Below, piece after piece: positions 12,835 through 50,224 of a DNA stretch of 64,000 nucleotides. Within the stretch, counting starts at the first letter, position 1, and every line of letters begins with the position of its first letter. A program made the position numbers and the translations under genes. Location of the stretch: positions 544,001 through 608,000 of the forward strand of contig CAWIIP010000004.1 in the NCBI GenBank assembly GCA_963836235.1. The letters run 5' to 3'. This stretch comes from an uncultured Pseudomonadota bacterium. Its GTDB lineage: Bacteria; Oederibacteriota; Muellerivitia; Muellerivitales; Muellerivitaceae. The notes under the pieces are model-generated. The model searched no databases, was not told where the DNA came from, and saw only the letters and a program-made list of their open reading frames with translations.

Positions 12835-12840
12835 GAGTAA

Positions 12841-20016: not shown

Positions 20017-21834
20017 TTGAACTTTATAAAAAGGTTTAAATGGATGCGCCTGAAAAAAGTTTCCTCTCTTTTGTTTTTAGCCTTTTATGGAATTAGCCTT
20101 CCGGTTTCGGCAAAGGTTTCTAGCCTGGCCGGGAAGGCGGTTTTTGTTCCAGGCGAAATCATTGTTCGATTGAAAGAGGGAGCTACTCCTGGTGATCGGG
20201 CCAAGGCCCTAAACGCTGTGGGAACGGCCCGATCCTTGAAACGTTCTGATTTTTATAAGGTGAAGTTAAAACCGGGAATAGATGTTCCAACCGCCGTGAA
20301 CCAAATGGCAAAAGATCCGTCGGTCCAATATGCCCAACCCAATTACCGCTATTACGCTTTGGGATGTTCTCCGCCAACCGATCAATATTACATATCGCTC
20401 CAAGACTGGCCGTTTCTTAAAATCTCCGCACCGCAGGCGTGGAATTTGTTTGCCATTTGTCCCCCCGGAAGTTCTTCAGTGACGGTGGCGGTTTTGGATT
20501 CGGGTGTTTCCCGTTCCCATCCGGATCTTCTGAATGTTCCGCTGATTGGTTATAACGCCGTCTGTGCTGTTAAGGAACAAGATCCTTCTTCGGTAGTGCC
20601 AGACCCTTCCTGTAGTTCATGCGGTGGGCCAGTCAGCGATTCCGTTTCCGGCCCCGTTACCGCCAGTATGGATGACTTCGGCCATGGTACTTATGTATCG
20701 GGAATTATTGCGGCCAGTTGGGGTACGGCGAATCCCGAGGCTTGTGGCGCCATGATGTCAACGACGGGCATTGCGGGTTTGGCGCCTGGAATCACTCTTC
20801 TGGCGGTTAAAGTTCTCGATTGCACAGGGAGTGGGACTACTGAATCCATAGTGGATGGAATAAATTTTGCAGTTAGCCAGGGGGCGAAAATTTTGAATTT
20901 TTCTCTGGGGTCAGATCCTTCATATGGTTTTGATCCAACGGAAAAAGACGCATTGGATAACGCCATCGCCAATGGATGTGTGATTGTAGCTGCCGCGGGC
21001 AACGAATCCGAGGGTGGAACGTTGGCGCCTCTTGATTTTCCAGCTGCTTATCCACCAGTTCTCTCGGTGGGTGCCACTGGTCCGAATGACGAGGTTGCAT
21101 GTTACTCAAACGGCGGGAGCGGTTTGGACTTGGTGGCGCCAGGCGGTTTAGCCAACGATTGCCAAAAATGCGGCGTCACTTGTTACAATCCTGGCGGTGA
21201 TGTTTTCGGGTCGTTTCTTTGCCCTCTTTCGCCAGCAGCGAATTCTGAAGGTGGATTTTGGCTCCTAGCAAGTGATTATAATTTTGGCACGGCTGCCGGA
21301 ACATCCGCCGCAACACCGTTTGTCTCCGCGACCGCAGCCTTGATCTGGTCCCTTTATCCCAATCTCACCAATAGTCAAGTTGTTCAGGCCATCATCAATA
21401 ACACAGATAGTTTGAATGGCAATCAGGGTTGGGATTCTAAAACCGGTTATGGCCGACTGAATGTTTACAATGCGCTCCTGAATGCGGGGAACGGAAGCGG
21501 CCAAATGACGGATTACGTCCAAACATTTAACAGCCCTAATCCTTTTTATACCGGAATTACCGGGACGACCAATATCACCCTCGCCATTTCCCAGCCGGCG
21601 CCAGTGGAATTAACTATTTTTGATTCCTCGGGAGAGTTGGTTTTTCGCAAGAACTACAATGCTTCCGATCTCAATAACAATCCGTCCAATCCGCAGTTTA
21701 AATCCTATTATCTTTCTTGGGATGGGCGGAATGGGGCAGGGCAAAAAGTCGTGACGGGGATTTATTTTTACAGCGTTAAGGTGAATGGACAAATTGGGAG
21801 AAACAAGATAGCCCTTGTCCAGGGAACGAAATGA
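20017..21834 (+). CDS. Secreted S8 subtilisin-like protease with T9SS-like/FlgD-Ig C-terminal domain
   Basis: Propeptide (PGEIIVRLK..YAQPNY), triad VLDSG/HGT/GTSAA, AAAGN, GYGRLN; CTD SPNPF..IFDSSGELV..WDGRN..GIYFY..KIALV. Confidence 0.9.
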   Translation: MNFIKRFKWMRLKKVSSLLFLAFYGISLPVSAKVSSLAGKAVFVPGEIIVRLKEGATPGDRAKALNAVGTARSLKRSDFYKVKLKPGIDVPTAVNQMAKDPSVQYAQPNYRYYALGCSPPTDQYYISLQDWPFLKISAPQAWNLFAICPPGSSSVTVAVLDSGVSRSHPDLLNVPLIGYNAVCAVKEQDPSSVVPDPSCSSCGGPVSDSVSGPVTASMDDFGHGTYVSGIIAASWGTANPEACGAMMSTTGIAGLAPGITLLAVKVLDCTGSGTTESIVDGINFAVSQGAKILNFSLGSDPSYGFDPTEKDALDNAIANGCVIVAAAGNESEGGTLAPLDFPAAYPPVLSVGATGPNDEVACYSNGGSGLDLVAPGGLANDCQKCGVTCYNPGGDVFGSFLCPLSPAANSEGGFWLLASDYNFGTAAGTSAATPFVSATAALIWSLYPNLTNSQVVQAIINNTDSLNGNQGWDSKTGYGRLNVYNALLNAGNGSGQMTDYVQTFNSPNPFYTGITGTTNITLAISQPAPVELTIFDSSGELVFRKNYNASDLNNNPSNPQFKSYYLSWDGRNGAGQKVVTGIYFYSVKVNGQIGRNKIALVQGTK

Positions 21835-22886
21835 GGAATCAAAGTCGAATTCCTCAAGGCTGGGAGACAAAGAAAAACTTTTTTTTAAAAAATTGTTATA
21901 TTGATCTTGGGTCTTTTCTGAAGTTTTGTTGGTCTTTTTGTCGTATAGAAATTAAATTTTGCTTCTTATTCTTTTTTTTGGCTTTGCCGGTTCTGGCGGA
22001 TCAGCAGGGAGGGCAAAGACCCGCGGCCTATTTGGAATATGGAGCGGGTGGGATTGAAAACGCCATGGGCGGGGCCGCCGTCGCCGATCGCAATGATGCA
22101 GCCAATGGATTTTGGAACCCGGCAGGATTAAGCGGCCTCCGAGGGTTTCAGGTGGAGGGCCATAAAACCCTGATGTCGTTGGGCCAGGAACTGGATTACA
22201 TAACTTTCGCCAATGGTTTTCGAGATGCGTTCTTTTACGGACTATCCTGGTTTAATTACAGCGCAGGAGGGGACATCGAGGCAAGGACGGGACCGTCCCT
22301 AGCGCCGGACAGTGTTTTCGGGGATACGGAAATGACTTTCCTGGGTTCGATCGCTTTCAAACTGGATCCCCAATGGGCCCTGGGCTGGAATATCAAAGTG
22401 TTGACCCAAAATTTTAACAACTTTTCCGCTTTTGGCCTGGGTGAGGACCTGGGGATTCAATACCGCGTCACCCAATACACGACCCTGGGTTTCATGATCG
22501 AAGACCCAATCACTTTTTTCAGTTATAACAATTCAATCACTGATTTTATTCCTCCTACTTTTAAGTCAGGTATTTCTCAACGTGATGAGAGGATTAACGC
22601 TAAATTAAATTTTGACCTGGACTGGAGTCCGGATTTAGGGTTAGAACCTCATTTGGGAATTGAGTGGCATCCAGCGGAAGCATTTGCCTTGAGGGGCGGA
22701 TGTTGGGCTGAAAATTTGACGGCTGGAACATCGGGCGGCGCTATTTTGATCAACCCGACAGCTGGTTTTGGGATTTTTGTTCCGATGGGGGACAGCTTAG
22801 TTGAATTGGATTACACGATTCTAACAGATCGTGTTGAACAAGGAAATTTTCTTCATCAGGTTTCGATCACTGGAAAATTTCTTTGA
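21831..22886 (+). CDS. PorV/PorQ-like (UPF0164/FadL-type) outer-membrane beta-barrel
   Basis: 'AAYLEYGAG..AMGGAAVA..FWNPAGL' N-terminal motif, amphipathic strands, 'LDYT..HQVSITGKFL' terminus. Confidence 0.78.
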   Translation: MRNQSRIPQGWETKKNFFLKNCYIDLGSFLKFCWSFCRIEIKFCFLFFFLALPVLADQQGGQRPAAYLEYGAGGIENAMGGAAVADRNDAANGFWNPAGLSGLRGFQVEGHKTLMSLGQELDYITFANGFRDAFFYGLSWFNYSAGGDIEARTGPSLAPDSVFGDTEMTFLGSIAFKLDPQWALGWNIKVLTQNFNNFSAFGLGEDLGIQYRVTQYTTLGFMIEDPITFFSYNNSITDFIPPTFKSGISQRDERINAKLNFDLDWSPDLGLEPHLGIEWHPAEAFALRGGCWAENLTAGTSGGAILINPTAGFGIFVPMGDSLVELDYTILTDRVEQGNFLHQVSITGKFL

Positions 22887-22940: not shown

Positions 22941-23750
22941 GTGGAAAATCCTGAAACATTAAAATCGCGGCTTGAACTTTGTCGACGTTTAGGTGTCCAA
23001 TATGTTTCTTTGAATGTTTCTGGCGAAGAAGGAACTGCGGATTATTCAACTAGGACGTCTTTTGTCGAATCGGTACCCGGTTTAATTGAAAGTGCGAGCA
23101 ACTCGGATTCTCTTCCTGGGCAAAAGCTTTCCGATATTGATCAGGCTAATCCCAAGTGGCTAACGGCTTTTCCGGACTCGGTCCAAGCCATGGAACTTTT
23201 GGCCTTTAACCGTGACATTTGTGAATGCCAAAACTGTCCTCTGGGTAAAACTCGCCAAAATTTTGTTTTCGGAAGTGGCAGTCCGCGTGCCGAGATAATG
23301 TTTGTGGGAGAGGCTCCGGGTGCGGATGAAGACGCCCAAGGTTTGCCCTTCGTTGGGAAAGCCGGTCAACTTTTGACCAAGATCATTGAATCAACCAAGA
23401 CCTGGAAGCGGTCCGATGTTTTTATATGTAATGTCCTCAAGTGTAGGCCTCCGGGAAACCGGACACCTCAACCGGAAGAAGTGGCACAGTGCCGACCCTA
23501 TTTGGAAGAGCAGATTCGTATTATTAAGCCCAAATTCATCATGGCTCTTGGAGCCAGTGCGGCCCAGGCGCTTTTAGAGACCAAGGATTCGGTTGGGAAA
23601 CTCCGCAACAAGTGGCATGATTTTGCCGGAATTCCCCTTCGTGTGACCTATCACCCGGCTGCCCTTTTAAGGTTTGATGGATATAAAAAGGACGTTTGGG
23701 AGGATATGAAGGAATTGACGGCCAAATATCAGGAATTGACCCACATGTAA
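22941..23750 (+). CDS. Uracil-DNA glycosylase family 4
   Basis: CQNC Fe-S motif, 'VGEAPG..ED..G.PFVG.AG', 'KCRPPGNR', 'TYHPAALLR'. Confidence 0.93.
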
Positions 23751-23870: not shown

Positions 23871-26800
23871 TTGATGAAGTCTTTTAAAATTTTATTTCTG
23901 GCCTCTTTTATCGTTTCTTCTGCTTTTCAAGCTTCCGAGGTTCAAGCCCAGTGTGGCATTTCTTATGATAACAATGAGGCTGTAACCTTCTTGACGGGAA
24001 CAACGGCTACTTTTCCCGTCACGGTTGGAAATTTGGGGAATCGGCTTCTTTTGCTTCAGGTGTCCACAAATAATAGCCCGAATGCCGTGAATGCTACTAC
24101 TACCACTTCCAGTAGAACAGCTAGTTTAACATCGATTGTTACTAATTCTGTTTTTGGTCGAACACTGGAATCCTTATACCTACTTAACCCCGATTCTGGG
24201 CCCAATACAATAACGTTGACCTTAACTAATTCTTCTTTTATTGCGGCCGCGACCAGCTTTGCAGGTGTATCTCAAACTGCTCCGGCACCTTGGAACACCA
24301 ATTTCTCTCGTCAGTCCACGGCGACCCAGGATTTTTCAATTTCTTTGGATACCACCACTCCCGACAGTTGGATCGTGGATCAATTTTTGTGGAATAATGC
24401 GACTATTGGAATTTCCGCATTGGGAGCTGCCCAGATTCAAATGTGGAACTCACCCTTCATAACTCCCAATATCAGCGCCGAAGGTGACTATCTTCCTACC
24501 AGCAGCCCTGGTTTGACAGCCCTTAGCTATTCCCTCACTGCCGCTACCAGCGGAGATTTACAGGCAGTGGAAATACTTCCATTCGTATGTACGCCAACCC
24601 CAACGAACACGTCTACAGATACTTCTACTAATTCGCCTACCGACACGCCGAGCTCGACGGCGACTTTGACTACTACGGATACGACAACCTATACGGCTAC
24701 AGATACGGCGACATTGACAGATACCTTGACTCCCACAGATACACCGACTTTGACCCCGACTTTTACCACTACGTGCACAACTACGGATACGGCCACAAAT
24801 ACTCCAACTTCAACAGCAACCCTTACGCCGACCAATACACCGGTCAATCCTCCGGTGAACATAATCCTGGCGGCAACACCCGTGAACCAGACGGTAATTC
24901 CGGGAATTGAAGGGGTGACGGTTATACAGTTGCAGGTGACCAACAATAGCATGACGGAAGGAGTGTCTTTCTTGTCCATTGTTTTGGGCGGGACCAACCC
25001 GAACGACTCTACCGAAATAGCACAGGTAAATCTTTATGATGAAACGGGACTGGTGACAAGCGGGACATTTAAAACTGCAGGGGCGGTGACGTTGGGGTTG
25101 GCACCCCTGGAAACGTTAGGGATGAGTGGTTCGGCTTCGGCATCGCAAACCTTCGTGGTGACTTATGATTTTTCAAATGCACAATTTGCGGGAACTTACG
25201 GATTGACGTTAGGCTCAGGTAGTTTGACCGGAACAGGTGCTTCGACCGGAAAGCCCATCGCGGTTTCAGGATTGCCATTAGGCGGAGCGCAAATAACAAT
25301 TGAGTTGCCGACATCAACGCCAACTAATACAGCCACGAGTACAACCACAGATACTCCAACAAATACGCCTACGCTTACCAATACAGCGACATTCACACCG
25401 ACGTTTACGGCGACGAATACGGCGACGGCCACGGCGACCGACACAGCCACAAATACGCCAACGAATACGGCGACCTATACGACGACGGATACGCCTACGG
25501 ATACGGCTACCTATACAACCACAGGTACGGCGACATTGACTGATACCTTAACTCCCACAGATACGCCGACTTTGACCACGACTTTGACGCCGACGGCGAC
25601 ACCGCAATCGAAGCTGGTGCTTTCGTGGAATAACGAACCGGCATCACAGAGCTATTTTTACAACCAGGCGAATGTGACGGGAATCCAGGTAGTGCTAAAG
25701 GCGCTTGGACAGGAGCCGGTGTCGGTGAACCAACTGGCTTTTGGGTTGGGAGGAACGCTTTTGAGCGGGGAGGTAGTGGGTGGAAGCGTGGAATTGTATC
25801 CGGATTCAGGGGCGAATGAGGTAGGTGGGGTTTATAACGGAACTGCTAGTCCGACGCCAGTGGCGACGGGAAGCTTTGTTGGCGGAACGGTTACTTTTGC
25901 GGGATTGACGAATTTAAAGGTGAATCCGTCGGGTGCGCCTCAAACCCTGCTGTTGGTGTTTAGCCTCCAAGCCAACGGCGGGGAGACTTTTTACAATACG
26001 ATTAGCGGCTCCTCAATTACGGCGGTGGGTGCGAATACGGGGCTACCGGTATCGGTTTTCGGAACACTGATCAATGGGAATACGCATACGGTGATAGGCC
26101 CTACGGCGACACCGACGTTTACGGCGACGAACACGGCGACGGCCACGGCGACCGACACAGCCACAAATACGCCAACGAATACGGCGACCTATACGACGAC
26201 GGATACGCCTACGGATACGGCTACCTATACAACCACAGGTACGGCGACATTGACTGATACCTTAACTCCCACAGATACGCCGACTTTGACCACGACTTTG
26301 ACGCCGACGGCGACACCGCAATCGAAGCTGGTGCTTTCGTGGAATAACGAACCGGCATCACAGAGCTATTTTTACAACCAGGCGAATGTGACGGGAATCC
26401 AGGTAGTGCTAAAGGCGCTTGGACAGGAGCCGGTGTCGGTGAACCAACTGGCTTTTGGGTTGGGAGGAACGCTTTTGAGCGGGGAGGTAGTGGGTGGAAG
26501 CGTGGAATTGTATCCGGATTCAGGGGCGAATGAGGTAGGTGGGGTTTATAACGGAACTGCTAGTCCGACGCCAGTGGCGACGGGAAGCTTTGTTGGCGGA
26601 ACGGTTACTTTTGCGGGATTGACGAATTTAAAGGTGAATCCGTCGGGTGCGCCTCAAACCCTGCTGTTGGTGTTTAGCCTCCAAGCCAACGGCGGGGAGA
26701 CTTTTTACAATACGATTAGCGGCTCCTCAATTACGGCGGTGGGTGCGAATACGGGGCTACCGGTATCGGTTTTCGGAACACTGATCAATGGGAATACGCA

Positions 26801-29800
26801 TACGGTGATAGGCCCTACGGCGACACCGACGTTTACGGCGACGAACACGGCGACGGCCACGGCGACCGACACAGCCACAAATACGCCAACGAATACGGCG
26901 ACCTATACGACGACGGATACGCCTACGGATACGGCTACCTATACAACCACAGGTACGGCGACATTGACTGATACCTTAACTCCCACAGATACGCCGACTT
27001 TGACCACGACTTTGACGCCGACGGCGACACCGCAATCGAAGCTGGTGCTTTCGTGGAATAACGAACCGGCATCACAGAGCTATTTTTACAACCAGGCGAA
27101 TGTGACGGGAATCCAGGTAGTGCTAAAGGCGCTTGGACAGGAGCCGGTGTCGGTGAACCAACTGGCTTTTGGGTTGGGAGGAACGCTTTTGAGCGGGGAG
27201 GTAGTGGGTGGAAGCGTGGAATTGTATCCGGATTCAGGGGCGAATGAGGTAGGTGGGGTTTATAACGGAACTGCTAGTCCGACGCCAGTGGCGACGGGAA
27301 GCTTTGTTGGCGGAACGGTTACTTTTGCGGGATTGACGAATTTAAAGGTGAATCCGTCGGGTGCGCCTCAAACCCTGCTGTTGGTGTTTAGCCTCCAAGC
27401 CAACGGCGGGGAGACTTTTTACAATACGATTAGCGGCTCCTCAATTACGGCGGTGGGTGCGAATACGGGGCTACCGGTATCGGTTTTCGGAACACTGATC
27501 AATGGGAATACGCATACGGTGATAGGCCCTACGGCGACACCGACGTTTACGGCGACGAATACGGCGACAAATACGGCCACCAGCACTACCACGGATACGT
27601 CAACGAATACGGCGACATTTACGATGACGAACACACCTACGGAAACAGACTCCTACACGCCCACAAACACCGCGAGTGATACCGCCACCGCCACTCCGAC
27701 TGCCACCTATACAACGCCGGATGTACATGTTGGTTTATTTGGCACATTAGGCCCATTAATCCAAATACCCGGAGCTTTCAACATTGCGGACTTGGAAGTA
27801 CTGGTCAGCAATAATAGTACCGAGCCGATAAGCTTGGTCGACATAGTGTTTTCGGCGAATGGACCCGGAAACGCGGGGATAACGCTGGTGAGTTTGTACA
27901 GGGGAGCCGGTGTTGCTGCGGGAAACCTTGCCCAAAGCGGCCCTTATAACGCTAGCAATGTGGTGACATTGGGTGCTCCGCTTCTGGACGAAATTCCAGC
28001 CGGTCAGGCTCAAACCTATACGGCTGCTTTTGACTTTTCGAATACGGCTCCGACAGGGGACTATGCGGCGGTTTTGACAAACTTGCAAGGAGCGGGCGTG
28101 TCATCTACCTTTCCACTTGTAGTTTCAGGACAGCCAGTTACTGGTGTGACGATCACCATCGCTACTCCGACTTTTACCCCGACCAATACGGCCACTAATA
28201 CCGCTACTAATACACCGACCAATACGGCGACGGTCACTGCGACCAAAACGGCAACGAATACCGCAACGAATACGGCAACGAATACAGCGACTAATACGGC
28301 AACGAATACCGCGACTAATACGGCCACAAGTACTGCGACCAACACGGCTACGAATACACCCACAAAAACGACTACCAATACCGCCACGAATACAGCGACT
28401 AATACCACGACGAAAACAACGACGAATACGGCTACGAATACCACCACGTATACCCCGACGAATACAGCTACCAATACTGCGACCTATACGGCCACGAATA
28501 CAACGACGAACACGCCTACGAATACGGCGACCTATACTGAGACCAATACGCCCACAAATACTACGACCGCCACAGCCACGAATACGGCGACAAATACAAC
28601 GACTAGTACGGTGACGAATACGACTACTGTTACCCCGACCAACACGGCCACAGACACAGCGACCAATACGGCTACCAGCACAGCTACTGCCACAACCACA
28701 CAAACTACCACTAGTACGGCTACGAACACGCCTACGGCGACTGACACGCCCTGGCCCGCGTCCCGTTTGGCTTTTGTTTCCACGCCCGTTCCTACGTTTA
28801 TTGCCGGAATCAGTTCCGGCCCGATGACGGTTGAAATCCAGAACAGTTCTGGTGCGGGGGCCACATTAAATGCCCCCATGACGATTAACTTGTCCTCCAA
28901 TTCGACGGGCGAGAACCTGTTTTCACAAACATTGGGCGGCAATCCGGATGGCAACTTTGTAGTCCAGCCCTTCTCAACTCCAGTGATCAGTTTCTATTAC
29001 CTGGATTACAAAGCTGGAAATTGGACTGCCACGGCATCGAGTCCTTCCGGTATCACTCCGTCCACTCTTTCGATGCCCGTGTCTACGGGGGCGCTATCCC
29101 AATTGCAAGTGCTGTTGCCGGGGGAAACCGCCTATCCCGGCTGGCCCACACCCGATCCATTGGGAAAAACAGGCGCTCCCAGCATTCAAACTTCAGGGAA
29201 TCCTTTCCCGGTGGTGGTGAACGCAGTGGATGCCTATTTCAATGTCATTTCGATTTCCAACCAGATTGCCTTGACGTCTACAGGCGCCCTATCCCAGGGA
29301 TCTTTTACATTGGCGGCCGGTACCTGGCCTGAGCCAGTGACTCTTTTCTCGCCTTTAAGTCAAACCTTACAGGCTACTGACTTGTCGGTTAGTGGCATTA
29401 CGGGTATTAGTTCACCAGTTTCTCTACTGCCTGGTTCCCGAAGCAATTTCTTGAACGTGGTCCATCTTTCGCCGACCCTCTCGACTGCCGTCTTGGGACA
29501 AGCCGGGGTCAACCTTTTGGTACTTCAATTCACCCCTAATGGGACGGATGAGGTGGAGCTTACGAATTTACAACTTCACGCAAAAGACGGTAACGGTACC
29601 GACATCCCAATTAATAGCGCCTTCCAGGATCTATCGATGGTCGGCAAGAACGCCAGTGGAGTAACCGTTTATTCCCAAGCGGTGTCCTCGGTTAATTTAG
29701 CCACCGTCACTTTGGGACCAATTCCTCCCGGGACTTTTATGAGCTCTTTTACCAGTCCTCCTGGCAGCCTGTCTGTGACGGTGGAAGCGAATATTTCCTC

Positions 29801-30245
29801 TTCTGCTAGCGCAAAAGACATCCAAATTTTTGTGGATAACGCGGGGTCCATTTCCGATCTGGATACCTATCCCCCCACCTTCTCGCTTCCAGTATCCGCC
29901 CAAGGCGACCCAACCGGGTTTCCCATGTCCTCCAATCTTTTGTTGATCCGCTCTGCCGACGTGGCAAGCACCTATGGCAATTATCCGAATCCATTCCACC
30001 CTGAGACCGGAAATACTACCATCGAGTTCAACTTGGCGACCCCTTCGATTTATTCCCTGGTCATTTATGATGTTCTTGGAAGGAAAGTAAAATCCTTTGA
30101 AACGAACACGCCTCAGTCAGGGCTTCAACAATTATCATGGAATGGGAAGAATGACGCCGGAACACCTGTCCTGAGCGGTGTTTACTACGCTCAATTGAAC
30201 ACGGGTGGGAGTAAATATCTCCTAAAAATAGCGGTGGTGTATTGA
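23871..30245 (+). CDS. Giant (2124 aa) secreted surface protein with Ig-like modules, Thr-rich linkers and T9SS-like CTD
   Basis: Signal peptide (..VQA|QC), repeated beta modules, TNTA/TPT tracts, C-terminal YPNPF..IYDVLGRKV..WNGKN..SGVYY..KIAVVY. Confidence 0.88.
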   Translation: MMKSFKILFLASFIVSSAFQASEVQAQCGISYDNNEAVTFLTGTTATFPVTVGNLGNRLLLLQVSTNNSPNAVNATTTTSSRTASLTSIVTNSVFGRTLESLYLLNPDSGPNTITLTLTNSSFIAAATSFAGVSQTAPAPWNTNFSRQSTATQDFSISLDTTTPDSWIVDQFLWNNATIGISALGAAQIQMWNSPFITPNISAEGDYLPTSSPGLTALSYSLTAATSGDLQAVEILPFVCTPTPTNTSTDTSTNSPTDTPSSTATLTTTDTTTYTATDTATLTDTLTPTDTPTLTPTFTTTCTTTDTATNTPTSTATLTPTNTPVNPPVNIILAATPVNQTVIPGIEGVTVIQLQVTNNSMTEGVSFLSIVLGGTNPNDSTEIAQVNLYDETGLVTSGTFKTAGAVTLGLAPLETLGMSGSASASQTFVVTYDFSNAQFAGTYGLTLGSGSLTGTGASTGKPIAVSGLPLGGAQITIELPTSTPTNTATSTTTDTPTNTPTLTNTATFTPTFTATNTATATATDTATNTPTNTATYTTTDTPTDTATYTTTGTATLTDTLTPTDTPTLTTTLTPTATPQSKLVLSWNNEPASQSYFYNQANVTGIQVVLKALGQEPVSVNQLAFGLGGTLLSGEVVGGSVELYPDSGANEVGGVYNGTASPTPVATGSFVGGTVTFAGLTNLKVNPSGAPQTLLLVFSLQANGGETFYNTISGSSITAVGANTGLPVSVFGTLINGNTHTVIGPTATPTFTATNTATATATDTATNTPTNTATYTTTDTPTDTATYTTTGTATLTDTLTPTDTPTLTTTLTPTATPQSKLVLSWNNEPASQSYFYNQANVTGIQVVLKALGQEPVSVNQLAFGLGGTLLSGEVVGGSVELYPDSGANEVGGVYNGTASPTPVATGSFVGGTVTFAGLTNLKVNPSGAPQTLLLVFSLQANGGETFYNTISGSSITAVGANTGLPVSVFGTLINGNTHTVIGPTATPTFTATNTATATATDTATNTPTNTATYTTTDTPTDTATYTTTGTATLTDTLTPTDTPTLTTTLTPTATPQSKLVLSWNNEPASQSYFYNQANVTGIQVVLKALGQEPVSVNQLAFGLGGTLLSGEVVGGSVELYPDSGANEVGGVYNGTASPTPVATGSFVGGTVTFAGLTNLKVNPSGAPQTLLLVFSLQANGGETFYNTISGSSITAVGANTGLPVSVFGTLINGNTHTVIGPTATPTFTATNTATNTATSTTTDTSTNTATFTMTNTPTETDSYTPTNTASDTATATPTATYTTPDVHVGLFGTLGPLIQIPGAFNIADLEVLVSNNSTEPISLVDIVFSANGPGNAGITLVSLYRGAGVAAGNLAQSGPYNASNVVTLGAPLLDEIPAGQAQTYTAAFDFSNTAPTGDYAAVLTNLQGAGVSSTFPLVVSGQPVTGVTITIATPTFTPTNTATNTATNTPTNTATVTATKTATNTATNTATNTATNTATNTATNTATSTATNTATNTPTKTTTNTATNTATNTTTKTTTNTATNTTTYTPTNTATNTATYTATNTTTNTPTNTATYTETNTPTNTTTATATNTATNTTTSTVTNTTTVTPTNTATDTATNTATSTATATTTQTTTSTATNTPTATDTPWPASRLAFVSTPVPTFIAGISSGPMTVEIQNSSGAGATLNAPMTINLSSNSTGENLFSQTLGGNPDGNFVVQPFSTPVISFYYLDYKAGNWTATASSPSGITPSTLSMPVSTGALSQLQVLLPGETAYPGWPTPDPLGKTGAPSIQTSGNPFPVVVNAVDAYFNVISISNQIALTSTGALSQGSFTLAAGTWPEPVTLFSPLSQTLQATDLSVSGITGISSPVSLLPGSRSNFLNVVHLSPTLSTAVLGQAGVNLLVLQFTPNGTDEVELTNLQLHAKDGNGTDIPINSAFQDLSMVGKNASGVTVYSQAVSSVNLATVTLGPIPPGTFMSSFTSPPGSLSVTVEANISSSASAKDIQIFVDNAGSISDLDTYPPTFSLPVSAQGDPTGFPMSSNLLLIRSADVASTYGNYPNPFHPETGNTTIEFNLATPSIYSLVIYDVLGRKVKSFETNTPQSGLQQLSWNGKNDAGTPVLSGVYYAQLNTGGSKYLLKIAVVY
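25395..27568 (+). repeat. Three near-identical 714-bp (238-aa) tandem intragenic repeats
   Basis: Marker GCAATCGAAGCTGG recurs at 25604, 26318 and 27032 (period 714). Confidence 0.95.
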
Positions 30246-31933
30246 TGATTCACGGTTACCTCACAGCCCCAACGGATATTCGGCCCAAGGCATTCCGAGG
30301 AGGTCTCGGGATCTTATTTTTAGGAATAGCCACGTTCGCAATGGTTTCATTAGCCGGGGCTCAAGTCTTGAGTACGGGGGGGACCGAATCCCCATTTGAG
30401 TTGGGGGGATCGGCTTGGTCCCTGGGGATGGGCGGGGCTGTGGCGGCGGTCTCGGGTTATGGGGACAGTTTTTTTGAGAATCCGGCAGCCTTAGCAACGG
30501 TTCAGGAACATGAAATTCTCACCTTTCACGCTCCTTTATTCCTCGATACTCTTTATGATTCCGTCGGTTATATCCATCCTATCGGAGCGAACAATAGCTT
30601 CGGTCTGGCTGTAACCCGATTGGGGACTTCGGGAATCTTTCAAACTCAAAATAACATTGAAGCCATTTCCACCTTTTCTTCCGAGGAGTATGAAGGGCTT
30701 TTGAGTTATGGGTTTCGCCTTTGGCCTGATTTGGATTTGGGGGCTTCGGTAAAATACATCTTTGAGCAATTATTGACTTATCAGGGAAGCGGCGCGGGGT
30801 TGGATTTGGGTCTTCTTTACCATTTTTCAAGAAGCCACGCGGATTTTAACCAGGTTGGATTCCGGAATATCACTCTGGGGTTCTCGGTTTCCAATGTTCT
30901 CCAACCGCAAACCAAACTTTTCCAGGTCGCGGATAACCCGGCTCGTGTTTTTCGCCCCGCCTTTTCTTACTATTATCAATTCCCGGGATCCCGAAACGAT
31001 TTTTGGGTGATGGCGGAAGGTGAATTTCCCTATAGCGGTGAAAAGCTCGTTAAGGCGGGTCTTCAATATGGGTGGAACAATACCGTTTTCGTCCGGACCG
31101 GATTTGACGGGACGGGACCCACGGCAGGCGCAGGGATAAAGCTTTATGATTTCGAGTTCGATTACGCCTACGACCAGCAGGATTTGGGGGCTTTGAACCA
31201 GTTTTCGCTGACTTACCGATTCGGGCGTTATGTAGACCCGCTTCAGGCTCAAAAAATTGATCTCTTGAAATGGGTAGCCCAAAGCTATTCCAAGGACAAC
31301 GATTTTGATCCAGCCATCAAAGCTTGGCAAAATGTATTGAGGGAATTTCCGGACGACACGGAAGCTCCGCAGGCCATCAAGGATCTTCAGCACCAGCGTA
31401 AAAATCTGGTTCAGGACCAGCTTCAGATGGCGCGGTCGGCCATGAGCCGGGGAGATTATGAGAAGGCATTGCCCTTGATCGCCAAGGTTTTGAGCTTGGA
31501 TCCCGGTAATCCGGATGCCAAGAAGCTCTTAAGCCAAATTGATAAAAAGACCTTGGTTTCCACCAATTATACACGCGGGGTGGAAGCTTACAGCCGTGAG
31601 GATTACGGACTGGCGATTCAATATTTGGAAATGGTCTACGAAGTGGATTCCCATTACCGGGATGTCAATTATCTTTACCACGACGCGCAAAGCCATTATC
31701 TTCCCTTGGAATCCATGCCCAAGGAATTAACCGAGCTTTATGCCCAGGGAGTGAATTACTATATGGGCGGAGATTATCGGAAAGCCATCGATGCTTGGGA
31801 ACAAGTGCTGAACAAGAGTCCTAAAAACTTCCTCGTTCGTCGCAATATTGAGGATGCCAGAAGACGTGTGAATGATAAGGCTGTTCCGGAAGATACTTCT
31901 ACTGAAAATCAGGAGCTTAAAAACAAACCATGA
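30242..31933 (+). CDS. PorV/PorQ-like beta-barrel fused to C-terminal TPR domain
   Basis: 'FELGGSAWSLGMGGA..FENPAAL', barrel ending 'FDYAY..LG..NQFSLTYRFG', followed by TPR helices. Confidence 0.8.
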   Translation: MMIHGYLTAPTDIRPKAFRGGLGILFLGIATFAMVSLAGAQVLSTGGTESPFELGGSAWSLGMGGAVAAVSGYGDSFFENPAALATVQEHEILTFHAPLFLDTLYDSVGYIHPIGANNSFGLAVTRLGTSGIFQTQNNIEAISTFSSEEYEGLLSYGFRLWPDLDLGASVKYIFEQLLTYQGSGAGLDLGLLYHFSRSHADFNQVGFRNITLGFSVSNVLQPQTKLFQVADNPARVFRPAFSYYYQFPGSRNDFWVMAEGEFPYSGEKLVKAGLQYGWNNTVFVRTGFDGTGPTAGAGIKLYDFEFDYAYDQQDLGALNQFSLTYRFGRYVDPLQAQKIDLLKWVAQSYSKDNDFDPAIKAWQNVLREFPDDTEAPQAIKDLQHQRKNLVQDQLQMARSAMSRGDYEKALPLIAKVLSLDPGNPDAKKLLSQIDKKTLVSTNYTRGVEAYSREDYGLAIQYLEMVYEVDSHYRDVNYLYHDAQSHYLPLESMPKELTELYAQGVNYYMGGDYRKAIDAWEQVLNKSPKNFLVRRNIEDARRRVNDKAVPEDTSTENQELKNKP

Positions 31934-34332
31934 ACTTGTCCCCCCTCCTTTACCGTATTCTTTCCCGCCTTCCCTTTGAGCCTAGACGAAGGCTTTACCG
32001 ACTGGAAGTGGAAGCCAAAGATATCGAGCTTCTGACGATCAAAGATTTTGTCCAGAGGGTTTGTGACTCGGCAGGCTGCACGCCAAAGGAAACATCCAAT
32101 ATCAAGCTGGCCATTGACGAAGCCTGCAGCAATATTATTCGCCATGCTTATAAAGATAAAGAGGGAGGAAAGATCAATTTAGAGATGGGGATCGGTTTTT
32201 CCGACTTGATGATAAAAATCATTGATTACGGCAAGCCCTTCGATTTCAGGGGTGTCAAAGATCCCGACTTGAACCATTACGTGGACATTGGGAAAAAAGG
32301 AGGGCTAGGTATATGGCTGATTAAGAAAGTCATGACTGATGTCCGTTATAAAGCTTTTCCAGACCACAATGAACTGATCCTTTACCGCCGTCTTTCGAAA
32401 GCTCCGCCTAGGGAATTGGGCCTCAAAAAGGGAAGCTATTCGGTTTCAACTAAATTCTCTTTGGGATCGATAGTGTTGATATTTTTTATCATTGCCTCCG
32501 CCTTTTTTTACCTGAACAAACAGCAACAAGCGCGGGTTTTCCAGCAACAAAGGGAAAGTGTGACTACCTTACTCGAGACGATGGCTTCTGAATCGGGTAT
32601 TTTTATGGCTCGCAAAAGCGATCTTGAATTGGACCGGTTGATTAGGGAAGTGCTTCGGGGAGACAAAGACAAGGTTTTAAGCTATGCCTTTGCCGTTAGT
32701 TCCGAGGGGAGATTTCTAGCTCATTCGGATTTAAACCAGCTATTCAAGTCTTATACGCCTCCTCCTGGCGTTCAAACAAGCCGGATACCAGGTATCCAAA
32801 TCTTCCGTGTCAAAACGGCCGAGGGGCCTTTAACGGATTACTCATCCGCCGTTTATTTTCATGGCCAGTGGATGGGCGAGGTCCATTTGGGCGAGAGCGA
32901 TAGCGCCATCCAGCAAATAGCTTCCAGAGTAAAAATCGATTTAGCGAAATTGATGGGTTTGATTGTTCTCGTCAGTGTTATTGGGCTTTATTTCCTTTCT
33001 CGTATTTTCATTAAGCCTTTCCAGAAAATTTTGGAAGGGGTTCATGCCATGAGTACAGGGAATTTTAACGCCAAAATTGACGTAGAAAGTCAGGATGAAT
33101 TCGGCCAATTGGCCAGCATCTTCAATGATATGACCCTCAAAATCCAGGATTCTCAGAAGGGAATGGTGGAGAACGAGCGAATGCAGAAGGAAATGCAAGT
33201 GGCTCAAGAAATCCAGCACACCCTTTTGCCTGGAGAGTTTCCACAAATCGAAGGTTATGAGATTGGGGCCACTTACCGGGCTGCCAAGGAAGTGGGTGGC
33301 GACTATTATGACTTTTTCTGGGTGGATCCAACCACGCTTGGCATCGTGGTGGCGGATGTTTCGGGCAAGGGTGTTCCTGGATCTCTTGTCATGACGATGA
33401 TCCGGACCGCCATGCGCCTGGAATCACGGGGCAACCGTTCGTCCTCCAGTGTTTTGGGAAAGGTCAATCAGCATGTCACCGCAGATATGAAACGGGGCAT
33501 GTTTGTGACAATGTTTTACATCATCCTAGATTCTCGGAACCGCTCGATCAATTTCTCCAGTGCCGGGCACAACCCAATGATCTTGTATCGGGGAAAGACA
33601 AAAGAAGTCTATTTCTTGAAACCCAAGGGTTTTCCGGTGGGGATTGATCTTCCCGAAGAGGATATGTTCGTTAAAAATCTTGCCCTTCAAAAGGTCAGCC
33701 TTGAGAAAAATGATATGTTGGTGATTTATACGGATGGAATTACCGAAGCAATGAATCCTGAAAGCGAGCAGTTTGGCGAAGATAGGCTTATCAATGTTAT
33801 TAAGGAAAATTCCAATCTCACTCCCGCGGAGTTTGTGGCTAAACTTAACGAGGCTATCGCCCAATTCACCCGCGGGGCAGAACAGAACGATGACATCACG
33901 ATCGTAGCCATTAAAGAAAAAATGAAAGCCGAGAATGTGGAGTTCAAATTCCGAAAAAAACTCTTGAATTTGGTCGAAAAGAAAGGCTTGTCAGTGATAG
34001 AAGCCTGCCGACAAATGAATACATCGACAAACACCTATTACCGATTTAAAAAAATCTTTGTTGAGAAGGGTAAAGATGGATTGAAGCCGGTGAAAAATAT
34101 GAAGCGAGGGGATATCAAGGAACTTCCCCTTCCCCAACAGCAGGCGGTAATGGCAATGGTTCGGGAACACCCTGAATACGGCGCAAAGCAGATTATTGAA
34201 GCGATTTTGAAAAATTCGACTCCGCCTATGAAGGTTGACCCGAAGTTGGTTTCGAAGTTCTTAAAGCGAAAGGGCTTGGCGGATGTGAAAGCCCGGGAAG
34301 CCCTTGGTGTTAACCAGGTTGACAGGGTTTAA
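31930..34332 (+). CDS. Membrane protein: RsbW-like kinase domain, TM-sensor-TM, HAMP, SpoIIE/PP2C phosphatase, C-terminal HTH
   Basis: 'LAIDEACSNIIRHAY', 'GGLGIWLIKK', HAMP 'DEFGQLA..FNDM', 'VGGDYYD', 'ADVSGKG', 'SAGHNP', 'YTDGITEA', 'DDIT'; HTH 'SVIEACRQMNTSTNTYYRFKK'. Confidence 0.9.
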   Translation: MNLSPLLYRILSRLPFEPRRRLYRLEVEAKDIELLTIKDFVQRVCDSAGCTPKETSNIKLAIDEACSNIIRHAYKDKEGGKINLEMGIGFSDLMIKIIDYGKPFDFRGVKDPDLNHYVDIGKKGGLGIWLIKKVMTDVRYKAFPDHNELILYRRLSKAPPRELGLKKGSYSVSTKFSLGSIVLIFFIIASAFFYLNKQQQARVFQQQRESVTTLLETMASESGIFMARKSDLELDRLIREVLRGDKDKVLSYAFAVSSEGRFLAHSDLNQLFKSYTPPPGVQTSRIPGIQIFRVKTAEGPLTDYSSAVYFHGQWMGEVHLGESDSAIQQIASRVKIDLAKLMGLIVLVSVIGLYFLSRIFIKPFQKILEGVHAMSTGNFNAKIDVESQDEFGQLASIFNDMTLKIQDSQKGMVENERMQKEMQVAQEIQHTLLPGEFPQIEGYEIGATYRAAKEVGGDYYDFFWVDPTTLGIVVADVSGKGVPGSLVMTMIRTAMRLESRGNRSSSSVLGKVNQHVTADMKRGMFVTMFYIILDSRNRSINFSSAGHNPMILYRGKTKEVYFLKPKGFPVGIDLPEEDMFVKNLALQKVSLEKNDMLVIYTDGITEAMNPESEQFGEDRLINVIKENSNLTPAEFVAKLNEAIAQFTRGAEQNDDITIVAIKEKMKAENVEFKFRKKLLNLVEKKGLSVIEACRQMNTSTNTYYRFKKIFVEKGKDGLKPVKNMKRGDIKELPLPQQQAVMAMVREHPEYGAKQIIEAILKNSTPPMKVDPKLVSKFLKRKGLADVKAREALGVNQVDRV

Positions 34333-34381
34333 GGCTAAAGTGATAATAAGGCCCGCAACGGGCCTTATCTTCGGAGGAAGC

Positions 34382-34744
34382 ATGGAAAATATTTCGGTTA
34401 GCGTATCTGAGCATCCACAAAATAAAGAAATAACCCTCCTTGCGGTAAAGGGTTTTATTGACACGACTACGGCTCCGGAGTTTGAAAAGAAATTTCTAAC
34501 GGTATTGGGTGAAAAGAAATTCAAACTGGTGGTTGATTTGAAAGATGTCAATTACATCAGCAGTGCCGGTTGGGGTATTTTTATCAGTGAAATTAAACGT
34601 ATTCGCAATCAAAAGGGGGATTTGGTGCTGGTTGGAATGAATCCCGAGGTCTCGGAAGTTTTCGAGCTGTTAGAATTTAACACTATTTTAAAGTCTTTTC
34701 CGAATGTCGAAATTGCCATTAAGAAAGGTTTTGAAAAGCCGTAA
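34382..34744 (+). CDS. STAS-domain anti-sigma factor antagonist (RsbV/SpoIIAA-like)
   Basis: 'KGFIDTTTAPEFE', 'VDLKDVNYISSAGWG', 'EVFELL'; GGAGGA RBS before ATG 34382. Confidence 0.92.
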   Translation: MENISVSVSEHPQNKEITLLAVKGFIDTTTAPEFEKKFLTVLGEKKFKLVVDLKDVNYISSAGWGIFISEIKRIRNQKGDLVLVGMNPEVSEVFELLEFNTILKSFPNVEIAIKKGFEKP

Positions 34745-34782
34745 TCCAAAGGATTTGAAGATCCGAAAGTTGGAAAAAAGTT

Positions 34783-35922
34783 ATGGAATCGGCCGCTTTA
34801 ACCTCCCTCATTGAAATCGAAGGGAAAAACTTTACACTCGAAACCTCTCCCGTATCAGGTAAAAATCGTCTTTCTTCCCTTATTCAATTGGGAGGGAGGA
34901 CACTATCTCAACGTGAGTTTGAAATACCTGAGGGGCTGGATGAGGATGGATTAAAGCATTTTCTGCAGGAAACCCACCGTATCCGTTCTGTGGAGCTTGA
35001 ATCCCTATTTCGCTTGAATCGGAAGATCGATGAAAAACCGACGACTGACGCCTGCTGGAAAATAGGGGTTATCTTCCTTTCTAATGGTTTTTATGAAGAT
35101 TCTCGCCAAAAATTCCAAAAAGCAATCGAAATGGATCCCCGCCATTTACAAGCCATCAAAAGCTACGGAATTACTTTAACTCTACTGGAAGATTTTGACG
35201 GGGCCTTAGCCACCCTGAACCAAGCGCGGGAGTTGGGACCTTCTTTTGCTGATATTTATTACCATCTCGGCAATGTTCATTTATATAAACGGGAATTGGA
35301 TGAATCCGTTCAGTGTTACCTTCAAGCCCTTCAAATCAATCCTCGTTACGCGGACGCCCGATTAAGGCTGGCCACTGCTTGTATGGGGTATTTGGCCCAA
35401 TCTTCCAACCAATTATCCGAACCTAAAGTAGCGGAATTATCAGAAAGGACCAAGACCGAAGCTGAAACGGCGGCTACGCTCAATCCAAAAGTCCGCAATC
35501 GGGCCTATATGATGGCAATGGATTTCTTGCGAAGTAAAAAATACTCGCAAGCTTTTCAATCTTTCATGGAAGTTCGTCCGCGGTATGTGCCTCGTATCGG
35601 CGATGAAATTATTTTTTTCTTCACTCTAACATTGTTATATGGAAGCGAAGGCATTGACCAGCAAATGACGGAACAGTATGTCGATAAATTATGTAAGGTT
35701 ATCGAAGAATTTCCCCATTACGCGGATCTCCACCACCATTTGGGTACTGCTTACTTGATCAAGTGCCGTTTTGATGTTAATCGCTCACTGAAGGAATTCA
35801 AAAAGGCTTTGGAGATTAATCCTCAATTTCAAAAGGCAATGACAAATTCGGTCGACACCGAAGATTTGCATAAGAAAGTGTTAACGGTTCTGAAAAAAGC
35901 AATCATGCCGCAGGGGAATTAG
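34783..35922 (+). CDS. Cytoplasmic TPR protein
   Basis: Multiple TPRs ('FADIYYHLG', 'ALQINPRYADA', 'YADLHHHLG'). Confidence 0.82.
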   Translation: MESAALTSLIEIEGKNFTLETSPVSGKNRLSSLIQLGGRTLSQREFEIPEGLDEDGLKHFLQETHRIRSVELESLFRLNRKIDEKPTTDACWKIGVIFLSNGFYEDSRQKFQKAIEMDPRHLQAIKSYGITLTLLEDFDGALATLNQARELGPSFADIYYHLGNVHLYKRELDESVQCYLQALQINPRYADARLRLATACMGYLAQSSNQLSEPKVAELSERTKTEAETAATLNPKVRNRAYMMAMDFLRSKKYSQAFQSFMEVRPRYVPRIGDEIIFFFTLTLLYGSEGIDQQMTEQYVDKLCKVIEEFPHYADLHHHLGTAYLIKCRFDVNRSLKEFKKALEINPQFQKAMTNSVDTEDLHKKVLTVLKKAIMPQGN

Positions 35923-36068: not shown

Positions 36069-36452
36069 TTATGATTCGGATGGAGGGGTCAGCGAGTAGT
36101 TAGTTTCCAAAAACTTAATGTGTTCGGACGTTATTTTGTCAAAGTTAACCCCATAAGCATACCTGCCCATGGTTTTCATGGGGTTTTTGCGGGCCCAAAC
36201 GACTTTTCCCAAATAAACGACACTATGGCTGCCGTCTAAGGAGTCCAATTCGAGGGTGATGTTGTAATTGTTGTCGAGGGTTTTGTTGGAGTAGATTTGA
36301 GCTCCGGTGGAACTAACGTTGACTAGTTGAGCGCGAAAGACCGCCCCATCCCCGGTCTGATCCACTAGGCGGCCCTTAATAGTTTTTACCATGACGACTC
36401 GGCGGTTGGTCCTCAAGTTGCCTTTTGATGGAGGACGAACTATTTTTTTCAT
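36069..36452 (-). CDS. PilZ domain protein (c-di-GMP receptor)
   Basis: RxxxR (RTNRR) and NxSxxG (NVSSTG) motifs, 'GKVVW', 'YGVNF'. Confidence 0.88.
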   Translation of the reverse strand: MKKIVRPPSKGNLRTNRRVVMVKTIKGRLVDQTGDGAVFRAQLVNVSSTGAQIYSNKTLDNNYNITLELDSLDGSHSVVYLGKVVWARKNPMKTMGRYAYGVNFDKITSEHIKFLETNYSLTPPSES

Positions 36453-49531: not shown

Positions 49532-50224
49532 ATGAAACAACCTTCGATTCTGATGATTGAAGACGATCAATCCGTATCCACTCTGACTCGGGATCTTTTC
49601 CTGAAAGAAGGATATGCTGTTAAGACCGTTTCCAATGGCGCGGAAGGGCTAAGCCTGCTCCAGCGGGAGGAGTTCGATCTTCTTGTGTTGGACTTGGGCT
49701 TGCCGGACATGAATGGATTGGATATTTGCTCCCGAATCAAGAGGGATTCGGTGCGCGGCAAAATGCCTATCTTCATTCTGACGGCTCTAGGCTCTTCTGA
49801 GGATATCGTCAGGGGTTTGGAAGCTGGTGCCGAGGATTACCTTCCAAAACCATTTAACGAGAGGGAATTCTTGGCCCGGGCTCGGGCCATTTTGAGGCGT
49901 AGGGATCCCCTGTTGTCTAAGGATGAGCAAATTGTTTCGGGTAAAATTAAATTGTCTCTCGCATCCCATGAAGCTTGGTGCTCGGAAAAACCGATTCAGC
50001 TTACTTTGCGCGAGTTTGATATTCTCCGTATATTTCTGGCCAACCCCGGTAAAGCCTTGACACGGGAAGAGATCGTGAAAATGGCTTGGGGTCCGGCAAC
50101 CGCTATTGTTCCCAAGGTAGTAGACGTTCATATCGGCCATTTAAGGGTTAAACTGGGGTCAGAAGGAAAGCGAATCGATACGGTTCCCCAGGTCGGCTAT
50201 AAGTTGGTACCTCCCAAAAAGTAG
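49532..50224 (+). CDS. OmpR/PhoB family response regulator
   Basis: REC ('IEDD', 'LDLGLPDMNG', 'EDYLPKPF') plus winged helix ('LTLREFDIL', 'VDVHIGHLRVKL', 'TVPQVGYK'). Confidence 0.95.
   Translation: MKQPSILMIEDDQSVSTLTRDLFLKEGYAVKTVSNGAEGLSLLQREEFDLLVLDLGLPDMNGLDICSRIKRDSVRGKMPIFILTALGSSEDIVRGLEAGAEDYLPKPFNEREFLARARAILRRRDPLLSKDEQIVSGKIKLSLASHEAWCSEKPIQLTLREFDILRIFLANPGKALTREEIVKMAWGPATAIVPKVVDVHIGHLRVKLGSEGKRIDTVPQVGYKLVPPKK

Follow-up and report, generated by a model that had tools for sequence, protein, structure and literature searches.

A PorV-like barrel with a putatively periplasmic TPR tail as the candidate bridge of a proposed five-gene trans-envelope signalling module in an uncultured bacterium

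In silico analysis of a 64,000-nt stretch of DNA from an uncultured bacterium of the Oederibacteriota (contig CAWIIP010000004.1, positions 544,001 to 608,000; the whole stretch is referred to as the window) points to five neighbouring genes at positions 23871 to 35922 as one trans-envelope signalling module, a reading to which a probability of about 0.55 is given. The genes encode successively: a giant surface cargo with a sorting domain, a PorV-like outer-membrane barrel extended by a tetratricopeptide repeat (TPR) tail, an inner-membrane sensor with an sCache-like outside loop, a STAS protein and a second TPR protein. The reading is carried by computed features, namely gene order, gene overlaps, domain content, the fold of the barrel, conservation, enrichment of signalling genes beside TPR-tailed barrels and joint loss of components. 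A sequence-only reading of the window had already described the serial overlaps at 30242-30245 and 31930-31933, followed by STAS and TPR genes, and this arrangement is borne out by the open reading frames (ORFs), the family scans and the sequence. Below, G000 denotes the genome of the window, other G numbers the genomes of relatives, and L numbers individual loci.

The cargo gene (23871..30245, + strand) encodes a protein of 2124 aa with a signal-peptide-like N-terminus, a Thr-rich region and a type-A C-terminal sorting domain of the type 9 secretion system (T9SS). The model TIGR04183 matches residues 2038-2121 with 43.6 bits (cut-off 23), which places the protein among the T9SS type-A sorting-domain cargoes. 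The C-terminal ~500 aa form its conserved part; over residues ~1620-2123, identity to the proteins encoded upstream at the orthologous loci of five relatives is 35-45%, and for the last ~230 aa matches of 22-26% persist in distant metagenome loci. The gene also contains tandem repeats of ~714 bp (~238 aa), whose elements recur at 714-bp spacing in window 25456-27166, and in BLAST comparison residues 584-816 and 822-1054 both match one segment of an orthologue. Against the Protein Atlas, the C-terminal 505 aa retrieved only unnamed FlgD_ig/CARDB/Big_1 clusters with scores of 0.82-0.88, to be taken as leads only. The stop codon of the cargo gene (TGA, 30243-30245) overlaps the start of the barrel gene by 4 or 1 nt, depending on whether TTG 30242 or ATG 30245 is used. 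As for the T9SS core, G000 holds one ORF of 2029 aa with three TIGR04189 pieces (112, 72 and 29 bits, none reaching the cut-off of 200 bits), the PorU model matches sorting domains only, and a family search for GldM gave no match in G000, the control genomes being equally silent.

The second gene (30242..31933, +) encodes a 563-aa protein composed of an outer-membrane barrel of the PorV/PorQ family and a TPR tail, as assigned by NF033709, TPR families and an AlphaFold2 model. The NF033709 match covers residues 54-219 and onward with 91.2 bits, marginally above the 90-bit cut-off. The barrel part extends over residues ~50-330, and the C-terminal tail comprises ~237 aa (residues ~333-545), with TPR-family matches over residues ~345-545 (TPR_2, E 7.5e-18). 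In the AlphaFold2 model, based on 51 homologues (predicted local distance difference test, pLDDT, 81.4), 14 strands at residues 89-329 are followed by helices at 333-545. An outer-membrane barrel with an even number of strands directs its C-terminal tail to the periplasmic side; given the even number in the model, the TPR tail should be located in the periplasm. Foldseek comparison of the barrel with the PDB gave 8gl6_F as the best match (E 4.8e-12, TMt 0.63), followed by 6h3i_F (E 4.2e-11, TMt 0.68), with FadL/TodX structures ranking below them (E 2e-8 and weaker). Chain F of these two type 9 translocon entries is, we take it, PorV. Identity with PorV proper or PorQ proper was considered and rejected (NF033710, 21.9 bits, cut-off 250; NF033711, 63.8 bits, cut-off 220), and on these family scores the protein is classed as a member of the PorV/PorQ family that is the orthologue of neither. 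The barrel might instead be a FadL-type channel importing a small hydrophobic molecule for the sCache domain, the TPR tail only keeping channel and sensor close together. The FadL/TodX matches and the weak Pfam Toluene_X matches of relatives fit such a channel, which is nevertheless very improbable, as the two best structural matches are T9SS translocon chains, NCBIfam assigns the barrel to PorV/PorQ, and the barrel gene overlaps a sorting-domain cargo gene here and at most loci examined.

The barrel gene is joined to the sensor gene by the sequence ATGA (31930-31933), a 4-nt overlap. Homologues of the barrel-TPR protein at ~25% identity include one labelled Zixibacteria, and public annotations of the module proteins read 'PorV/PorQ family protein', 'tetratricopeptide repeat protein' and 'SpoIIE family protein phosphatase'. 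In a close metagenome-assembled genome (MAG; L140:8004-9691) and in a genome of the same genus (G001:C14:115435-117086), the barrel-TPR frame is split into pieces of ~430 aa and ~126-156 aa, which may reflect a frameshift, a stop or an assembly error.

The third gene (31930..34332, +) encodes an inner-membrane sensor of 800 aa with the following consecutive elements: (i) an RsbW-like Ser kinase domain (HATPase_c_2, residues 33-151, 83.4 bits); (ii) a first transmembrane (TM) segment (hydrophobic residues 170-199); (iii) an sCache-type loop of ~135 aa; (iv) a second TM segment (333-365); (v) a HAMP domain (PF00672, residues 355-406, 42.9 bits), whose position after the hydrophobic segment identifies the protein as a HAMP receptor; (vi) a PP2C phosphatase domain (SpoIIE, residues 467-662, 163.2 bits); and (vii) an IS481-like helix-turn-helix (HTH) domain (674-721). 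The sCache_3_2 match is weak in the window sensor (17.8 bits) and reaches 47-56 bits in orthologues. The ATP-binding motifs and the PP2C metal-site motifs show no variation among 55 homologues. The HTH tail (window 33949-34332, residues ~674-800) matches the heads of IS481/IS630 transposases (NF033577, 50.6 bits; NF033545, 26.3 bits) and is retained in most homologues; it is a possible membrane-tethered DNA-binding output. Assignment as a SiaA-type phosphatase was rejected (NF038263, 72.4 bits against a cut-off of 700).

The sensor gene is followed by the gene of a 120-aa STAS protein (34382..34744, +; STAS, 72.8 bits), whose likely start is ATG 34382 behind GGAGGA in a frame open from 34304; its orthologues are 120-128 aa long. 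It contains the sequence YISSAGWG, which resembles the DSSG motif of SpoIIAA/RsbV and may hold a phosphorylatable serine. Both the kinase and the phosphatase of the sensor presumably act on this STAS protein. With a PP2C phosphatase, a GHKL Ser kinase and a STAS protein all present, the genes are classed as a partner-switching module of the RsbU/V/W-like type. No Sigma70_r2 match to a cognate sigma factor was detected in or beside the module, the nearest one in G000:C4 being far away. The fifth gene (34783..35922, +) encodes a cytoplasmic-looking protein of 379 aa assigned to TPR families, with an orthologue at the same place in L054, L066, L072, L083, L124, L140, L222, L225 and L226. At 34319-34347, inside the end of the sensor gene and 35 nt before the STAS start, there is an 11/12 match to the sigma-70 hexamers (TTGACA, 17 nt, GATAAT), a consensus match only, in a region with fewer such matches than its shuffles. 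The promoter and terminator scan gave promoter counts at or below those of shuffled sequence and no clear operon boundary.

The mechanism that we infer comprises the topology, the contact of cargo with barrel, the contact of TPR tail with sensor, the direction of information flow and the output. The giant protein would be exported, and a private PorV-like barrel in the outer membrane would hold its C-terminal sorting domain; this holding is proposed by analogy with PorV and with the PorA-PorV binding reported in PMC7712824. The periplasmic TPR tail of the barrel would meet the sCache-like domain of the inner-membrane sensor. Changes of the cargo or barrel (presence, ligand binding, processing or release) would be passed from the TPR tail to the sCache domain and on to HAMP, which would shift the balance between the N-terminal RsbW-like serine kinase and the PP2C phosphatase. 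Both enzymes would act on the adjoining STAS protein, and its phosphorylation state would set the output, for which the HTH tail of the sensor and the conserved 379-aa TPR protein are candidates. The same input device, cargo plus barrel-TPR, may be mounted on other transmitters, namely a HAMP kinase with an OmpR-type regulator at 46133-50224 of the window and pairs of extracytoplasmic function (ECF) sigma and anti-sigma factors at four further loci of G000.

The second instance in the window begins with a 446-aa cargo (44796..46136, +) with a signal-peptide-like start, a PT-rich linker and a C-terminal sorting-type domain. Its FlgD_ig match is weak (19.8 bits), its C-terminus matches the C-termini of other cargoes, and the protein is 56% identical to the one encoded upstream of the orthologous barrel in G021. 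The barrel-TPR fusion that follows (622 aa, 46133..48001, +; TPR tail ~299 aa) probably starts at ATG 46133, overlapping the stop of the cargo gene, in an ORF open from 46028; its NF033709 score of 55.5 bits lies below the 90-bit cut-off. The next gene, overlapping by 4 nt, encodes a HAMP histidine kinase of 470 aa (47998..49410, +; HAMP 39.4, HisKA 47.7, HATPase_c 101.1 bits) with two hydrophobic segments around an outside loop of ~130 aa, and is followed by the gene of an OmpR-type response regulator (49532..50224, +; Response_reg 100.9, Trans_reg_C 71.9 bits). Alignment of the whole kinase with the family of the 800-aa sensor in hhalign gave a probability of 97.8 over the outside loop, second TM segment and HAMP together, and 8.5 (E 0.004) for the outside loop alone. 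A comparison pair is provided by an S8 protease with a sorting domain (20017..21834, +) and a tail-less PorV-family barrel (21831..22886, +; NF033709, 67.3 bits, below the 90-bit cut-off). The next gene there encodes a uracil-DNA glycosylase (UDG; 22941..23750), and there is no signalling gene. Thus, both barrel-TPR fusions of the window sit directly before a HAMP protein (30242 before 31930, 46133 before 47998) and the tail-less barrel does not, just as the sequence-only reading had stated.

From this it had been proposed that the TPR tail marks barrels coupled to signalling, and an association with HAMP genes across genomes was to decide the matter. The genome survey covered G000 and eight more genomes of the phylum (four from the family of G000, one from its order and three from other families), with 201 PorV-family barrels in total. 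For G000, 21 barrels at E <= 1e-5 were taken, with neighbourhoods from crude gene calling and Pfam scans. In each of the eight further genomes, NF033709, HAMP and Sigma70_r2 matches were all listed; tails were scanned for 102 barrels with open frames of at least 400 aa, and the 78 short barrels were counted as tail-less. As a HAMP neighbour we counted a HAMP match on the same strand at most 3.5 kb downstream of the barrel, and as an ECF neighbour an ECF-sized sigma ORF on the same strand within 4 kb. The PorV family is greatly expanded in the phylum, with 8-45 matches per genome (9 genomes). A pure TPR tail was found in 43 of the 201 barrels, 3 of them weak. The others carry OmpA (23), OmpA+TPR (4), fn3 (23, plus 1 fn3 with weak TPR), FlgD_ig only (8), Phosphonate-bd (1) or a long tail without family (13), or are short barrels (85).

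A HAMP neighbour was found for 12/43 TPR-tailed barrels and 1/158 others (Fisher p 2.6e-8), an ECF neighbour for 15/43 against 3/158, and either of the two for 27/43 against 4/158 (Fisher 2.5e-18), Fisher values that treat relatives as independent and overstate the evidence. In two further TPR-tailed cases, a HAMP gene lies 4.4-4.9 kb away, separated from the barrel by a single gene. Within G000, 6 of the 21 barrels have a pure TPR tail, two standing before a HAMP protein (the window genes) and four beside an ECF sigma factor. All six have a HAMP or ECF neighbour, compared with none of the other 15, which have no tail, an fn3, OmpA or OmpA+TPR tail, or an unclassified one; for HAMP neighbours alone the counts are 2/6 and 0/15 (p 0.07). 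The proposed association is therefore present. As a mark of signalling-coupled barrels, the TPR tail is upheld in part by this enrichment, yet HAMP is not the common denominator of the partners, and a part of the TPR-tailed barrels stands apart from HAMP and ECF genes altogether.

The partners encoded beside TPR-tailed barrels are diverse: (i) HAMP histidine kinases with an OmpR regulator; (ii) RsbW/PP2C/STAS sets, fused or unfused; (iii) an sCache-HAMP-HD_5 protein with a HAMP cyclase, near one barrel-TPR gene of G036; (iv) CHASE2-PP2C proteins without HAMP; and (v) ECF sigma factors with an anti-sigma factor ending in a periplasmic FlgD_ig domain, the commonest partner in this family. Unfused sets occur in G031, where an sCache-HAMP-PP2C protein is followed by STAS and then a separate RsbW-like kinase, and in G036, where sCache-HAMP-PP2C stands alone. 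The idea that the output modules are interchangeable is thus supported and extends beyond the two types first claimed, to at least five transmitter kinds beside the same barrel type. The length of the tail tracks the partner: 109-187 aa for ECF, 215-269 for PP2C, 299 for the kinase and 349 for HD_5. In two loci, L086 (G029:C1:19996-34996) and the metagenome locus L169, the barrel-TPR gene is followed by that of a FliG_M/FliG_C-domain protein, in L086 with MotA/ExbB- and MotB/OmpA-like genes thereafter; this neighbour may represent a further, energy-coupled partner type.

The four ECF sigma/anti-sigma pairs beside TPR-tailed barrels of G000 are located at L030 (C2:483684-490923), L038 (C2:124069-136847), L039 (C2:1077747-1095527) and L040 (C1:189018-205949). 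Their anti-sigma factors are single-pass proteins of 214-331 aa with a FlgD_ig end like the sorting domains of cargoes. Two of the four loci lead into glycoside hydrolase/polysaccharide lyase genes. The cargo-like end bears on a different direction of the signal, in which the TPR tail would capture cargo that has not yet left the periplasm by its sorting domain and the sensor would respond to the occupancy of the tail, so that jammed or pending export is reported and not surface events. Such an export-load checkpoint uses components identical to those of the surface-to-cytoplasm relay, from which the present data do not distinguish the direction of the signal, and a periplasmic end of the cargo type in the ECF variant fits competition for one site. 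The HAMP-type sensors possess sCache or CHASE2 and not a cargo-like domain, so simple competition does not carry over to them, and a checkpoint of this kind appears improbable.

The conservation of the module was examined by searching the barrel-TPR and sensor sequences, each in 41 relatives. The sensor has a match in 32 and the barrel-TPR protein in 23 of them, and in 22/41 the barrel-TPR match lies directly upstream of the sensor match. All five genes, from the cargo to the TPR protein, stand in the same order in G003, G012, G021, G025, G036, G030 and the close MAG L140. In a metagenome set, an alignment of 21 barrel-TPR homologues yielded 80 loci, 38 of them with at least 2.2 kb downstream; the barrel-TPR proteins are here only 23-42% identical to the Zixibacteria-labelled relative. 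A membrane PP2C sensor is encoded next after 9/13 barrels with a Pfam-detected TPR tail and 1/25 others (p 3.8e-5). Seven of the nine sensors belong to the kinase/HAMP/PP2C type (one without a HAMP hit at 1e-5) and two to the CHASE2-PP2C type; the four TPR-tailed exceptions have a FliG-like protein, a giant fn3 cargo or nothing on that strand next. The single case among the other 25 is a CHASE2-PP2C protein after a barrel with a 503-aa tail and no Pfam hit. Barrels with tails of ~505 aa followed by CHASE2-SpoIIE phosphatases without HAMP were seen in the metagenome loci L170, L181 and L198. A contig scan with the barrel-TPR protein gave two loci, one from a close relative and one at 26% identity.

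In a quick IQ-TREE phylogeny (LG+G4) of the 123 barrels with sequence, restricted to barrel-model columns and leaving out the 78 short barrels of the other genomes, the window barrel 30242 falls into a clade of 11 TPR-tailed rows (SH-aLRT 96), 9 of them PP2C-linked. The second barrel-TPR protein groups with its G003 and G021 orthologues in a clade of 3 kinase-linked rows (SH-aLRT 100), and the ECF-linked barrels form a third group of 16-17 rows. A single origin of the TPR tail was rejected, as the label has to change 15 times on the tree and supported branches force at least 7 of these changes. The association is best seen as a few old and well-preserved neighbourhoods, every one involving TPR-tailed barrels, and not as many independent events. 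The events being few and old, it could be argued that the neighbourhood was merely inherited by descent and means nothing. This is hardly credible when the order is kept between proteins of 23-45% identity, across several families of the phylum and also in remote metagenome lineages, with overlapping gene ends and components that are lost together.

Such a joint loss was found in G013 (L222, C27:52000-66000) and G041 (L226, C1:1-14000), two genomes of one genus, which are without the cargo, barrel-TPR and STAS genes. The surrounding order is kept, with CoaBC, S8 protease, tail-less barrel, UDG, sensor, TPR protein and GltX. The sensor retains the kinase, PP2C and HTH; its two TM helices are joined by a loop of ~20 aa, a coiled coil replaces HAMP, and sCache is gone. 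The full module is present in their congener G023, and the domain set lacking sCache and HAMP is the same in six database proteins. The loss takes exactly the parts that are expected to cooperate outside the cytoplasm.

Several observations weigh against a trans-envelope relay. Of the TPR-tailed barrels, 16/43 have no HAMP or ECF gene within the set limits, 14 of these have none even at 5.5 kb, and their neighbours are mostly without a signalling domain; the tail must thus serve at least one further purpose, unless the partners are encoded elsewhere. The four OmpA+TPR-tailed barrels also lack HAMP and ECF neighbours. The module of G029 has a HEAT-repeat gene between barrel and sensor, and in G031 and G037 an RNase R gene, not a cargo gene, stands upstream of the barrel of the PP2C module. 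On the tree, the HAMP label changes 8 times and the signalling label 11 times, with the positives in few clades; an independent-pairs test, of low power with only 4 pairs on supported branches, gave a sign-test median p of 1. The joint loss in G013 and G041 is a single event that removed STAS too. Finally, regulators often adjoin the genes that they control, and adjacency alone shows no relay.

The last point leads to the strongest rival explanation, a local regulator only. Here, sCache would bind a soluble periplasmic ligand, the sensor would control transcription of the neighbouring cargo and barrel genes, and the TPR tail would serve cargo handling or anchoring without ever touching the sensor. 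The sCache domains are ordinary small-molecule sensors as a family, regulators are common neighbours of their targets, the TPR-tailed barrels with no sensor nearby imply that the tail can work alone, and other tails of the barrel family, OmpA and fn3 with 23 barrels each, look structural. A local regulator leaves unexplained why sensors follow TPR-tailed barrels and only a single one of the 158 others, though nearly all barrels follow a cargo. It also does not account for the tracking of partner type by tail length, or for the disappearance of sCache and HAMP together with cargo and barrel-TPR in G013 and G041. We consider it unlikely, and the relay from cargo through barrel and TPR tail to the sensor is preferred.

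The module shares features with several known systems. In Porphyromonas gingivalis, the one studied case in which type IX secretion is linked to signalling, the sorting-domain protein PorA is bound to PorV and takes effect ahead of the kinase PorY; a direct PorA-PorY interaction went undetected, and according to the authors the outer and inner membrane have to be linked by additional factors (PMC7712824). The PorA-PorV-PorY/PorX-SigP circuit is alike in that a surface T9SS sorting-domain protein on PorV lies upstream of an inner-membrane sensor kinase controlling expression. It differs in that PorV is a general shuttle without a TPR tail and the genes do not form one overlapping string. In the modules described here, in contrast, each cargo has a private barrel, the barrel a TPR tail that should be periplasmic, and a kinase/PP2C/STAS set, a HAMP kinase or an ECF pair would serve as transmitter. 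In FecA-FecR-FecI, an outer-membrane barrel with a periplasmic extension relays a surface event via an inner-membrane regulator to transcription, as is proposed here, and an ECF version exists in the genome of the window. However, the Pfam and NCBIfam matches of the module proteins include no TonB-dependent transducer, N-terminal signalling domain or FecR domain, and, compared with FecA, the module barrel is PorV-like with 14 modelled strands, its extension is a C-terminal TPR tail, and the ligand-binding part is a separate cargo.

With regard to the transmitter, RsbU, RsbV and RsbW of Bacillus subtilis perform partner switching with a PP2C phosphatase, a STAS protein and a GHKL Ser kinase. 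All of these domain families are found in the module, where kinase and phosphatase are fused and membrane-bound and a sigma-B-like gene is absent. SypE of Vibrio fischeri is a cytoplasmic protein with a receiver domain between kinase and phosphatase. Like the window sensor, SypE combines in one polypeptide an RsbW-like serine kinase and a PP2C phosphatase, which are reported to act on the single-domain STAS protein SypA with no need of an adjoining sigma factor (PMC3610818, PMC10120452, PMC4517449). Compared with SypE, the window sensor has TM-sCache-TM-HAMP in its middle and an added C-terminal HTH, and its gene is tied to a cargo/barrel pair. As no sigma factor gene is found in the module, it resembles in this respect SypE/SypA more than RsbUVW.

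Cargo-specific PorP/SprF-like barrels are encoded beside type-B sorting-domain cargoes in Flavobacterium johnsoniae; these pairs likewise have a private outer-membrane barrel encoded directly after the cargo. Their barrel family is a different one: its model TIGR03519 does not match the 30242 gene, and with the 46028 gene it scores 36.8 bits, below the cut-off of 90.55. To our knowledge, neither a TPR tail nor a signalling partner has been described for PorP/SprF-like cargo pairs. Among the papers listed in literature searches that did not extend to supplements, none described a PorV-like barrel extended by a TPR tail or connected such a barrel with membrane sensors.

Little is understood of how information passes the outer membrane when no TonB-dependent transducer is involved. 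A candidate for the bridge is here written in the gene itself, as a PorV-like barrel fused to a putatively periplasmic TPR tail and translationally coupled to cargo and sensor, and it offers the concrete hypothesis that the TPR tail binds the sensor domain. More broadly, cargo plus barrel-TPR may constitute a general, portable input device for trans-envelope signalling in candidate phyla of the Fibrobacterota-Chlorobiota-Bacteroidota (FCB) group, a generalization that we advance tentatively and at somewhat less than even odds. The cargo would act as the surface antenna, the private barrel as the crossing element, and the TPR tail would dock on the transmitter encoded next, be it an ECF anti-sigma factor, a HAMP kinase, a kinase/PP2C switch, an HD-GYP-type enzyme or a CHASE2-PP2C protein. 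If true, this device would supply the missing link asked for by the PorA-PorY work in P. gingivalis. It would also give a rule for finding the sensors that watch given surface proteins in many uncultured phyla; in this phylum such proteins include glycan-binding cargoes next to plant-polymer-degrading enzymes.

The remaining features of the window concern the neighbourhood of the module. A gene for a PilZ-domain protein (36069..36452, - strand; PilZ, 41 bits) is kept at this position within the family, the same gene being found in L054, L066, L072 and L140. More large proteins ending in FlgD_ig or Por_Secre_tail (804, 484, 923, 1955 and 733 aa) are encoded at 39011-42989 (-), 51566-54337 (-) and 54756-63204 (+), and no PorV-family match at E <= 0.01 lies beside these sorting-domain proteins in the window. 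Further upstream, the regions 88-8800 and 9815-16908 contain genes of a T2SSE ATPase and a secretin with TPR, resembling a type IV pilus or type 2 secretion system, and then a run of DUF58 and von Willebrand A genes similar to a BatA-like cluster.

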